Assembly: GCF_054482595.1 (NCBI RefSeq)
Contig: NZ_CM137008.1
Length of the DNA: 64,000 nucleotides
Strand: one strand, 5' to 3'
Part shown: positions 41,241-42,797 of the stretch, piece after piece
How positions within the stretch are numbered: the stretch's first letter is position 1
Layout of the letters: each line of letters opens with the position of its first letter
Translations under genes and position numbers: made by a program
The notes under the pieces: model-generated
Databases searched by the model: none
Told to the model about the DNA's origin: nothing
What the model saw: only the letters and a program-made list of their open reading frames with translations

Positions 41241-41351
41241 ATATTCATCCCTGAAATGTATTAATGAAATAAACGATATTTTACGCGCAATAAATGTTTG
41301 GCTCATTAGTTGTTTGAGCGAAAAATATCTGGAAAGCAGATCACAGTAAAT

Positions 41352-41434
41352 AAAAAAACCTGCTGGTGAGGCAGGTTCTTTTATTTACTATTTTCAGGCC
41401 TAACACCACAGCCTGTGCAACATCGTGTTCCAAC
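41352..41434 (-). ncRNA. orzO: Antisense sRNA antitoxin of the first zor toxin copy (OrzO/OrzP type)
   Basis: Minus-strand sigma70 promoter (-35 TTGCAA 41469..41464, 17-nt spacer, -10 TATAAT 41446..41441); terminator hairpin cctgctggtgaggcagg (41359-41375) followed by U7 on minus strand; 5' 19 nt complementary to the toxin leader. O versus P copy assignment is from memory and uncertain. Confidence 0.55.
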
Positions 41435-41440
41435 GAACGA

Positions 41441-41491
41441 ATTATAACCACGGCTGGACCCCGTTGCAATTAAGATAATGAGATTTATAAT
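41441..41491. promoter_or_regulatory. Back-to-back divergent promoters of sRNA and toxin mRNA sharing one palindromic -35 hexamer
   Basis: Plus strand: -35 TTGCAA 41464-41469, 16-nt spacer, -10 TATAAT 41486-41491; minus strand uses the same TTGCAA with -10 TATAAT at 41446..41441. Confidence 0.5.
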
Positions 41492-41672
41492 CCAGACCGT
41501 TGGGACGTTGCGCCGGATCGAACCTATTTCAAGTCCTGGCTACCGGACGGGTGGTGCTTCAGGTGGTGCCCTGAGCCGGAGTGCAACATCGTGGTCCAAC
41601 ATACGTAAACCAGTATTGACAGGCAGTGTAAGGGTAAGGTGCTGGTGTTGCGCTCCTTAATAAGGAGAGCGG

Positions 41673-41762
41673 ATGGACTCGCTGACACAAAAGTTAACCG
41701 TGCTCATTGCTGTACTGGAGCTATTAGTAGCTCTGTTACGGTTGATTGATTTGTTGAAGTAA
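41673..41762 (+). CDS. zorO: Type I toxin, 29 aa (MDSLTQKLTVLIAVLELLVALLRLIDLLK), ZorO/ZorP family
   Basis: Not in ORF track; AAGGAG Shine-Dalgarno 5 nt upstream; ~175-nt leader from predicted TSS; sequence recognised as Zor toxin. Which copy is zorO and which zorP is not certain. Confidence 0.8.
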   Translation: MDSLTQKLTVLIAVLELLVALLRLIDLLK

Positions 41763-41784
41763 CGGGCAAATTGAAACGCATCTA

Positions 41785-41812
41785 AGGGGGAAAACCGCTT
41801 CCCCCTTTAATA
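41785..41812 (+). terminator. Rho-independent terminator of first zor toxin gene
   Basis: gggggaaaaccgcttccccc hairpin followed by TTTAATAAAAT. Confidence 0.6.
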
Positions 41813-41961
41813 AAATGATTACTGTTTTTATTAATTCATCATATAACTCATTTTTATTTATAAATTCATCGATTTTATATTCAACGCACCATTTGACCGG
41901 GATGTGAATATTTATGGTGGGCTATTGGCAAAAAATATCTGGAAAGTAGATCGCAGAAAAT

Positions 41962-42042
41962 AAAAAAACCTGCTGGTGAGGCAGGTTCTTTTATTTACTA
42001 CAGTGACGCTAACTTGCTGATTGTGCAACATTTCGTACCAAC
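41962..42042 (-). ncRNA. orzP: Antisense sRNA antitoxin of the second zor toxin copy
   Basis: Same architecture as copy 1: -10 TATAAT at 42054..42049, -35 TTGCAA 42076..42071, terminator hairpin 41969-41985 with U-run; 5' 18 nt complementary to cognate leader (42190-42207). Confidence 0.55.
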
Positions 42043-42048
42043 GAATAA

Positions 42049-42099
42049 ATTATAACCATATCCACACTCCATTGCAATTCAGTGAGTGAGATTTATAAT
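42049..42099. promoter_or_regulatory. Second copy of the divergent sRNA/toxin promoter pair with shared palindromic -35
   Basis: TTGCAA 42071-42076 flanked by TATAAT on plus strand (42094-42099) and on minus strand (42054..42049). Confidence 0.5.
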
Positions 42100-42280
42100 C
42101 CTGCCCGTTGGGAGGTTGTGCCGGATCGGACCAATTTTAAGTCCTGGCTGCCGGACGGGTGGTGCCGCAGGCGGTGCCCTGATCCGGAGAGCAACGTTTC
42201 GTACCAACATACGTAAACCAGTATCGACAGGCAGTGTAAGGGTAAGGTGCTGGTGTTGCGCTCCTTAATAAGGAGAGCGG

Positions 42281-42370
42281 ATGGACACGCTGACACAAAA
42301 GTTAACCGTGCTCATTGCCGTACTGGAGTTATTAGTGGCTCTGTTACGGTTGATTGATTTGTTGAAGTAA
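42281..42370 (+). CDS. zorP: Type I toxin, 29 aa (MDTLTQKLTVLIAVLELLVALLRLIDLLK), ZorO/ZorP family
   Basis: Not in ORF track; second tandem copy 608 bp downstream of the first; differs by Ser3Thr; AAGGAG SD present. Confidence 0.8.
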   Translation: MDTLTQKLTVLIAVLELLVALLRLIDLLK

Positions 42371-42393
42371 CGGGCAAATTGAAACGCATCTAA

Positions 42394-42418
42394 GGGGGAA
42401 TACCGTTCCCCCCTTTAA
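42394..42418 (+). terminator. Rho-independent terminator of second zor toxin gene
   Basis: gggggaataccgttcccccc hairpin followed by TTTAAG. Confidence 0.55.
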
Positions 42419-42479
42419 GAAAGCTATACTCGTCATACTTCAAGTTGCATGTGCTGCGACTTTAATTATCTAGAGTATA

Positions 42480-42797
42480 TTATTCTATTTCTTGGTTGAA
42501 TATATTCTGTAGTTTACGATTAAAAATTGCTATTACAGTTTCAGGTGATTCACCTCGTAATTTCCGCTCATCAATACACTCATCTCTTATATAAATCAAC
42601 GCATCATTTATTAGCGGGTCAGCATCTTCTCGATCACGTTGATGAAATGTTGAACGTAGCCGGAATCGCTCCAGTCGATAGACGGAACCTGTAAATAATT
42701 CAGAGCATTTATGGATCTCAAGTCTGAAGGAAAACGGATCTTCAGGTACAGGGACCTCATAATCGTAAATAGCAACCAGCTCTTTTTGCACGATCAT
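42480..42797 (-). CDS. yehK: Small protein of unknown function
   Basis: 105-aa ORF 61 nt downstream of yehI on the same strand; recognised as YehK. Confidence 0.75.
   Translation of the reverse strand: MIVQKELVAIYDYEVPVPEDPFSFRLEIHKCSELFTGSVYRLERFRLRSTFHQRDREDADPLINDALIYIRDECIDERKLRGESPETVIAIFNRKLQNIFNQEIE

Follow-up and report, generated by a model that had tools for sequence, protein, structure and literature searches.

In this work we have analysed a 64,000-nucleotide stretch of DNA (contig NZ_CM137008.1 of assembly GCF_054482595.1, the window hereafter), in which the known zor-orz type I toxin-antitoxin system of E. coli is present twice in tandem, with the toxin gene zor and the gene of the antitoxin small RNA (sRNA) orz transcribed divergently in each copy. 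Our results show that the promoters of the two genes are packed in a core of 51 bp, and that the best -35 candidate of both is one and the same palindromic hexamer, TTGCAA. We consider it fairly probable that this core is a back-to-back pair of sigma70 promoters with a single -35 element, and that the two promoters compete, so that initiation of the toxin mRNA is capped, or its ratio to the antitoxin set, with no on/off exclusivity. The elements of the two cores are the following.

41464-41469, both strands: shared palindromic -35 hexamer TTGCAA of copy 1, the best -35 candidate, at -35 to -30 of both promoters
41486-41491, plus strand: -10 element TATAAT of the zor promoter of copy 1, with a spacer of 16, 7 nt upstream of the transcription start at 41499
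41446..41441, minus strand: -10 element TATAAT of the orz promoter of copy 1, with a spacer of 17, 6 nt upstream of G 41434
42072-42077, both strands: shared -35 hexamer TTGCAA of copy 2, from the promoter scan and the comparison of cores
42094-42099, plus strand: -10 element TATAAT of the zor promoter of copy 2, from the promoter scan
42054..42049, minus strand: -10 element TATAAT of the orz promoter of copy 2, from the promoter scan

An earlier note on this DNA, made from its letters alone, had described the hexamer, both TATAAT elements and the spacers of 16 and 17 in copy 1, and these lie exactly where it placed them; it had also seen the same arrangement in copy 2, where the pattern was likewise found (42049-42099). 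A promoter scan of 41250-42480 returned exactly four sites, all scoring 10/12, and TTGCAA, which matches TTGACA at 4/6 with TTG on either strand, was the top -35 candidate for all four -10 elements when spacers of 15-19 were tried. All four promoters have the sigma70 layout, with hexamers 16 or 17 bp apart and the transcription start site (TSS) 7-8 nt past the -10. The pattern ATTATA-N17-TTGCAA-N16-TATAAT occurs twice in the window, at 41441-41491 and 42049-42099, against 0.00 occurrences expected from 100 shuffles. When the criteria of the promoter scan were applied to all 64 kb, no back-to-back promoter-like pair other than the two cores had 5 bp or more of a -35 in common, while 200 dinucleotide shuffles gave a mean of 0.27 pairs at a score of at least 9/12 per promoter and of 0.005 at the observed score of at least 10/12. 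The copies are 93% identical over 480 nt; since they are a tandem duplicate, copy 2 is not an independent occurrence and the two have to be counted as one. The hexamers are identical between the copies, and the spacers mostly differ.

The transcription starts are fixed by the published numbering of the system together with the pairing of the antitoxin 5' end. The zorO mRNA has a 174-nt 5' untranslated region with the ribosome binding site (RBS) at +164..+169 and the region named EAP at +73..+102, the 3' end of which is the OrzO binding site (PMC5397157). OrzO pairs through its 'immediate 5' end', its first 18 nt being enough (PMC3919570), and the Orz sRNAs measure about 85 nt (PMC2887945). If transcription starts at G 42107 in copy 2, or 41499 in copy 1, the published values are reproduced, that is, a 174-nt leader, AAGGAG at +164..+169 and an Orz-complementary block at +83..+102. 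On the other strand, the Orz identity blocks end at 42042 (the 18-nt block) and at 41434, 7 nt past the antisense -10. The orzP copy of MG1655 is identical, and there Term-seq has mapped a 3' end at 2204485(+), as would be expected of an RNA of about 84 nt starting at 2204402. The TSSs are therefore 41499/41434 in copy 1 and 42107/42042 in copy 2, 65 bp apart in both, so that TTGCAA falls at -35 to -30 of both promoters. The claim of divergent promoters with a single -35 is thus borne out by the published numbering and by the system's authors, who list TTGCAA and TATAAT for both genes (PMC11264685); and whereas the earlier note had proposed as a test that the TSSs might imply distinct -35 elements, the published mapping does not imply them.

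How could one hexamer serve two promoters? Domain 4 of sigma70 binds the -35 hexamer as duplex DNA (restated in PMC12825309). Since sigma70 region 4 needs the same 6 bp in either orientation, there would be one holoenzyme per core, and the promoters would compete; the presence of two holoenzymes on one core at once is implausible, as follows soundly from the contact of region 4 with the -35 element and from the geometry. The antitoxin side would be favoured in this competition, with its optimal 17-bp spacer and AT-rich discriminator (TCGTTC at 41435-41440 and TTATTC at 42043-42048) versus the 16-bp spacer and GC-rich discriminator of the toxin side (CCAGACC at 41492-41498 and CCTGCCC at 42100-42106). 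Occupancy of the antitoxin promoter would couple to, or cap, initiation of the toxin mRNA and would in this way set the ratio of the two RNAs. The main safety device would be post-transcriptional, with Orz pairing to the leader at +83..+102 and the leader 5' end clamping the same site. At steady state, initiation at promoter 1 would be scaled by (1+k1/e1)/(1+k1/e1+k2/e2), where k is the rate of polymerase binding and e the rate of clearance, so that the reduction depends on the fraction of time in which the other promoter is occupied. Consensus -10 elements, together with the abundance of Orz in growing cells, make some capping from the antitoxin side plausible. As a separate observation, the contrast between the zor and orz discriminators hints at a difference in open-complex stability or growth-rate sensitivity between the competing promoters.

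The earlier note went further and suggested that the shared hexamer could hard-wire mutually exclusive transcription, which is an over-reach, because a polymerase dwells for only seconds on each DNA copy, there are two cores, and the two RNAs coexist. In its strong form, a switch by which the cell makes either toxin mRNA or antitoxin, this idea is in our opinion very improbable. It draws on the same implausibility of simultaneous binding at one core, but exclusion would last only for the dwell of the polymerase, with no feedback that locks the state, and a growing cell holds two tandem cores on several chromosome copies. In addition, both RNA species have been mapped from the same cultures (PMC2887945), the antitoxin works by pairing with a toxin mRNA that coexists with it, and both promoters look functional in the related loci of Citrobacter, Pantoea and plasmids described below.

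The hexamers are also what is retained within zor-orz. Eight distinct cores were compared: the two of the window, the O157 zorP-type core, a plasmid copy, two cores of E. whittamii, one of Escherichia sp. MOD1 and the MG1655 remnant (the O157 zorO-type core is identical to copy 2 of the window). All 18 hexamer positions are invariant in them, versus 47-50% of the spacer positions. Two short blocks that abut the -10 elements are also invariant in these eight canonical cores: GAGATT before the zor -10 (41480-41485 and 42088-42093) and GGT before the orz -10 (within AACC on the plus strand of the window, 41447-41450 and 42055-42058), the remainder of both spacers having drifted. From their position, these bases could be a spacer or extended -10-like input to promoter strength. 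A second, divergent zor-like family, with the toxin MDTLTHKL(V/I)VLIA(A/V)LELLLALLRLIDLLK and its own sRNA seed, is intact in Pluralibacter (L014, ~440-920); in E. whittamii contig 2 (L018, ~1230-1700), part of a genome that carries a canonical tandem zor-orz locus elsewhere (L019), the toxin -10 of this family is degenerate (TTTTAA). When these two were added, giving 10 cores, TTGCAA was the sole block that remained fully invariant. In MG1655, the orz-only locus (NC_000913.3 ~2204310-2204400, corresponding to 41441-41530 of the window) keeps a complete core and about 29 nt of the zor leader; its apparently intact toxin promoter aims antisense into the 3' end of yehK.

A perfect 6-bp palindrome that is the most conserved block of the region might also be read as an operator for a dimeric regulator of both promoters, the more so as zor-orz regulation 'remains to be deciphered' according to a 2025 review (PMC11951105). 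We regard this as hardly probable, since the palindrome of copy 1 ends at 6 bp and relatives carry non-palindromic, -35-like hexamers at this place, which fits a polymerase site better. We also considered whether TTGCAA is the centre of a larger palindrome or operator and rejected the idea, since the 12-nt extension seen in copy 2 is not conserved between the two copies.

The geometry was then compared in relatives, which were found through the leader motif GACAGGCAGTGNANGNGTAAG (~120-145 nt after the start) in one genome per species, a choice that avoids promoter bias; a plasmid family with a toxin annotated as DinQ was also examined. For each locus, the sRNA 5' end was taken from the leader identity block, and the best promoter was then chosen independently on each strand. 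The motif scan gave 19 loci, five of them chance matches (L009, L015, L016, L017 and L022) and 14 with a dinQ- or zor-type locus. Four of these 14 (L010, L012, L023 and L024) lie on contigs labelled as non-enterobacterial (uncultured bacterium, Lachnospiraceae metagenome-assembled genomes and Chryseobacterium), and the loci themselves are of the enterobacterial dinQ type: L010 and L012 carry an E. coli-type dinQ, the locus of L023 is dinQ-like and has diverged further, and the 480 nt extracted from L024 do not differ from those of the Citrobacter locus L021, which comes from the same study. Judged by sequence, assembly contamination or mis-binning is the likely origin of the four; L010, L012 and L024 were left out of the promoter comparison, and L023 was kept as an exception. 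In the loci that share, the two -35 hexamers have 5-6 bp in common, and the span from the outer edge of one -10 to that of the other is 50-53 bp, as follows.

zor-orz: 51 bp
Pluralibacter (TTGCAA): 51 bp
Serratia oryzae: 51 bp
Citrobacter amalonaticus (2 copies) and Citrobacter sp.: 50-52 bp
Pantoea: 53 bp
Plasmid pFORC51: 52 bp

The sRNA promoter has in all of these a 17-bp spacer and the better -35, which is TTGACA in Citrobacter (6/6), TTGAAC in Serratia and TTGCAT in Pantoea and the plasmid, and the reading of the central hexamer in the toxin direction is good only in zor and the zor-like loci. The dinQ-like loci of plasmids, Citrobacter, Serratia and Pantoea thus have in common with zor-orz the 50-53 bp span, the overlapping -35 elements and a seed motif at both starts, and differ in their DinQ-type toxins and in a non-palindromic central hexamer that favours the sRNA; their promoters are predicted ones.

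Other divergent toxin-sRNA pairs, dinQ/agrAB, tisB/istR-1 and shoB/ohsC, have in common with zor-orz a small hydrophobic toxin, a long structured leader, a divergent sRNA that pairs by its 5' end, and related leaders, but in them the toxin promoter has moved away or the -35 hexamers are separate. At chromosomal dinQ/agrA, an exception to the geometry, the toxin promoter lies about 19 bp further off, with LexA operators, and the span is 70 bp. Both agrA and agrB keep TTGCAA 17 bp upstream of their -10 (MG1655, L005 2525-2570 and 2755-2800), and agrB has CAGCTG where the toxin -10 would be; lacking this -10, agrB looks like an old sRNA-only duplicate, analogous to the orz-only loci. A further exception is one contig with an insertion between the promoters. 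The starts of tisB and istR-1 are about 145 bp apart and those of shoB and ohsC about 142 bp apart, with separate -35 hexamers in both. Both pairs had been considered as sharers and were rejected: the promoters of tisB and istR-1 are clearly separate, and an overlapping TTTACA/TTGTAA pair at shoB/ohsC does not agree with the shoB promoter of the literature, which is GTGACC/TAAAAT and lies some 140 bp from the ohsC start. The zor leader (window 42134-42246) is 74% identical to the leader of the plasmid toxin annotated as DinQ (L003 601-715), present in about 90 Salmonella, E. coli and Klebsiella plasmids, and its blocks AAGTCCTGGCT...GGTGGTGCC...GACAGGCAGTG are common to chromosomal dinQ and, more loosely, to tisB. 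Judged by their leaders, the divergent type I toxins seem to form a single superfamily.

A close parallel comes from the bidirectional promoters of Warman and Grainger (Nat Microbiol 2021; NAR 2026, PMC12825309), in which one short pseudo-symmetric element is likewise read by sigma70 both ways, two polymerases cannot bind together and competition is possible. Those promoters have a common -10 between outer -35 elements, with distances of 10, 18 or 23 bp from TSS to TSS (PMC12825309); zor-orz is built the other way round, its common -35 being flanked by the two -10 elements and its TSSs separated by 65 bp. With two -10 elements 39 bp apart, zor-orz falls outside the definition of a bidirectional promoter, which has a shared -10, and would count in the same terms as 'separate divergent promoters', stated there not to clash. 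By its geometry, with the same hexamer at -35 to -30 of both promoters, the layout comes instead under an older and wider concept, that of overlapping divergent promoters with promoter competition. Plasmid pLS20 offers a similar case: its promoters Pc and Pr are divergent and overlap, polymerase binding at one affects the other, and they form part of a genetic switch, although there the -10 of one promoter is the -35 of the other, and a repressor/activator with DNA looping drives the switch (PMC4207663). The PR and PRM promoters of lambda are also close divergent promoters in a genetic switch, with starts 82 bp apart, separate -35 elements and an outcome decided by CI and Cro. Unlike pLS20 and lambda, zor-orz has no known regulator.

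Several points weigh against competition at the zor-orz core. At five bidirectional, -10-sharing promoters the basal activity was too low for competition (PMC12825309), and the effect at zor-orz could consequently be negligible; at that class of promoters, raised activity in one direction represses the other, with steric competition measurable at high activity only (PMC12825309). The geometry could also persist by descent alone. As regards the starts, the TSS supplements of Ettwiller 2016, Yan 2018 and Kim 2012 have no entry near those predicted in MG1655, 2204402(+) and 2204337(-) (NC_000913.3), and the Orz TSS comes from statements in the text of the papers and from the geometry, not from a primary primer-extension gel. 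Our literature search turned up no experiment on the interplay of the zor and orz promoters. Finally, most relatives have a central hexamer that makes a poor -35 when read towards the toxin (ATGCAA, GTTCAA, TGTCAA), and the toxin promoter may for this reason make no sequence-specific use of it, with the invariant, AT-rich GAGATT stretch next to the zor -10 as a possible substitute.

This last point leads to the view that TTGCAA is the -35 of the antitoxin only, the toxin promoter being effectively -35-independent and working through its consensus -10 and the AT-rich GAGATT. The hexamer scores of the relatives agree with it (on the sRNA side, 4-6/6 for Serratia and Citrobacter and 3/6 for the TTGCAT of Pantoea and the plasmid, versus 2-3/6 when the same hexamer is read on the toxin side), as do a toxin spacer that varies between 15 and 18 bp across relatives where the sRNA spacer is constant at 17, the invariance of GAGATT in the eight cores, and the published statement that AT-rich spacers near -18 can make up for a missing -35 (PMC12825309). 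In zor-orz itself, however, TTGCAA scores 4/6 with TTG both ways and is the best candidate at any spacer, and the system's authors assign it to both genes (PMC11264685). We consider this view rather unlikely, and even under it a polymerase at the zor promoter would cover the DNA of the hexamer, so that steric exclusion would stay. In the zor-orz papers we found no mutational data on how far zor-orz transcription depends on the hexamers.

A different origin for the arrangement is suggested by the 5' ends of the transcripts. Whatever the lineage, one short motif (GTTGG, GTTAG or CTGGATT) opens both divergent transcripts, and between genera it co-varies with the sRNA target in the leader. In the minimum free energy fold, nt 1 to about 28 of the mRNA are paired with the sRNA target in six of seven leaders, those of the window (41499-41526 with 41571-41600, and 42107-42134 with 42180-42208) and of L003, L011, L014, L020 and L026 being the ones concerned; in the fold of zorO, nt 1-22 pair with nt 74-102, the published EAP region. 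Since the mRNA 5' end is predicted to pair with the target of the sRNA, it would be a cis mimic of the antitoxin seed, and such mimicry would fix the place of the two TSSs, and with them that of the -10 elements, with respect to the seeds. Seed mimicry alone leaves the abutment of the promoters unexplained, and fits an inverted duplication about the -35 axis.

On this basis the shared hexamer could be a historical by-product of the origin or compaction of the module, with no regulatory effect and with promoters that fire too rarely to meet; an inverted duplication of promoter plus 5' seed about the -35 axis, for example, would create TTG|CAA. We judge such a by-product possible, though unlikely. 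In agreement with it, the same start motif on both transcripts and the pairing of 5' end with target in the folds make the region an imperfect inverted repeat, basal competition was absent at the five tested -10-sharing promoters (PMC12825309), and among sRNA-only derivatives the toxin-side -10 is gone from agrB and survives only where the deletion appears to be recent, as in MG1655. On the other hand, the span is still 50-53 bp although the spacers have almost wholly turned over between genera, which suggests constraint, and the consensus -10 elements on both sides and the abundant sRNA (PMC2887945) mean that occupancy need not be low. Between the copies the palindrome is not kept beyond TTGCAA, and the similarity of the inverted arms beyond the hexamers consists only of the seed-like 5' ends, which their function explains, so that an ancient duplication cannot be shown.

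A broader form of the competition model can be put forward as a tentative and rather doubtful proposal. In it, zor-orz and its relatives would represent an 'inside-out' class of bidirectional promoter, with a shared -35 and flanking -10 elements; the type I toxin-antitoxin superfamily would keep this geometry so that the antitoxin promoter caps toxin initiation and the ratio is robust to gene dosage and polymerase availability, and the lineages under SOS control (dinQ, tisB) would have escaped by moving the toxin promoter.

The promoter anatomy itself is already published, and the sharing is implicit there. Figure 1A of Wen 2014, according to its legend, has predicted -35 and -10 elements boxed for both genes. 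Table 3 of Shore 2024 (PMC11264685) has a single '-35 (TTGCAA)' row, conserved in 99.4% for Zor and 99.4% for Orz of 2,439 loci, and a '-10 (TATAAT)' row conserved in 100% for Zor and 99.8% for Orz of the same loci; for 656 orz-only loci the values are 99.7%/99.7% for the -35 and 100%/98.9% for the -10 (Zor/Orz). The equal Zor and Orz percentages of the -35 fit a single hexamer counted for both genes. In the zor-orz literature searched there is no mention of promoter overlap, palindrome, polymerase or interference, and a search for shared or overlapping -35 elements in divergent promoters gave pLS20 as the only relevant case, the rest being mostly noise. What appears to be absent from the literature searched is the explicit sharing of the -35, the conservation of the geometry in the zor/dinQ-like superfamily and the bias of the hexamer to the antitoxin side; all three, as read from the sequences, are extensions of a known kind.

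The identity of the locus, which the earlier note had called a toxin-antitoxin pair, is confirmed by full-length matches to Rfam RF02083 (OrzO-P) at 41352..41427 (99.9 bits) and 41962..42035 (88.8 bits), with a gathering score of 60, and by the 29-aa Zor open reading frames (ORFs). Copy 1 is the zorP/orzP-type and copy 2 the zorO/orzO-type locus, following the variant definitions of PMC11264685. The parts of the two copies are listed here.

41352..41434, minus strand: orz sRNA gene of copy 1 (OrzP-type antitoxin), TSS at G 41434, terminator hairpin and U-run at 41352-41382
41499..41672, plus strand: zor 5' leader of copy 1, 174 nt, with the 5' clamp at nt 1-28, the Orz target at 41581-41600 and the RBS AAGGAG at 41662-41667
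41673..41762, plus strand: zor toxin ORF of copy 1, 29 aa, MDSLTQKLTVLIAVLELLVALLRLIDLLK, ZorP variant T3S
41784..41808, plus strand: terminator-like hairpin of zor copy 1, read from the sequence and missed by the terminator scan because its T-run is interrupted
41962..42042, minus strand: orz sRNA gene of copy 2 (OrzO-type antitoxin), TSS at G 42042
42107..42280, plus strand: zorO 5' leader, 174 nt, with the Orz target at 42189-42208 and the RBS at 42270-42275
42281..42370, plus strand: zorO toxin ORF, 29 aa, MDTLTQKLTVLIAVLELLVALLRLIDLLK (MDTLTQ...), from the ORF translation
42392..42416, plus strand: terminator-like hairpin of zor copy 2, read from the sequence

The 5' end of Orz matches the leader at +83..+102 in 19/20 positions in copy 1 and 18/20 in copy 2, with predicted duplex energies of -42.4 and -32.9 kcal/mol. 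The system is the same as zorO-orzO/zorP-orzP of O157:H7 EDL933 (Fozo 2010; Wen 2014, 2017; Shore 2024), with which it has in common the RF02083 sRNA, toxins of 29 aa, a tandem arrangement between yehK and yehL, a leader of 174 nt and TTGCAA/TATAAT for both genes, while the window copy is only 95.6% identical to an O157 locus. For the EDL933 genes, toxicity of overproduced Zor and rescue by the cognate Orz have been shown (PMC3919570), and the ZorO sequence of the window is identical to that of EDL933. The flanking ORFs match yehL, yehK and yehI, with the tandem loci between yehK and yehL as in O157 Z869 and MG1655. Of 5,426 complete E. coli genomes, 5,231 contain DNA that matches the locus, which is unannotated throughout in RefSeq; the best identity of the zor-orz region of the window (41330-42420) among these 5,426 genomes is 98.7%, one genome exceeding 98%. 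A tblastn search with ZorO against plasmids gave no match.

Some minor observations concern the 3' ends and the neighbouring DNA. Each orz terminator hairpin (41352-41382 and 41962-41992) stands between an A-run and a T-run, and a plus-strand terminator is also called there. On the minus strand, about 110 nt separate an orz terminator hairpin from the yehL start codon downstream, and in the MG1655 Term-seq data the OrzP 3' ends 2204485 and 2204446 are tabled as 'upstream ORF' ends, 111 and 150 nt before yehL; read-through of orz into yehL is conceivable. A weak, partial Rfam match to isrH, below the gathering score, lies at 42425-42479(-) (E=0.003).

What would competition mean for these toxin-antitoxin modules? 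Should it prove negligible, the present work would be a tidy description of a compact promoter region that is already published. If it is true, it would add a transcriptional layer to a system understood so far only post-transcriptionally, and zor-orz would be a natural and strong case of promoters that compete through a common -35, which would complement the recently studied ones with a common -10. The conserved geometry could, moreover, help to predict antitoxin sRNA genes beside unannotated toxins of the superfamily.

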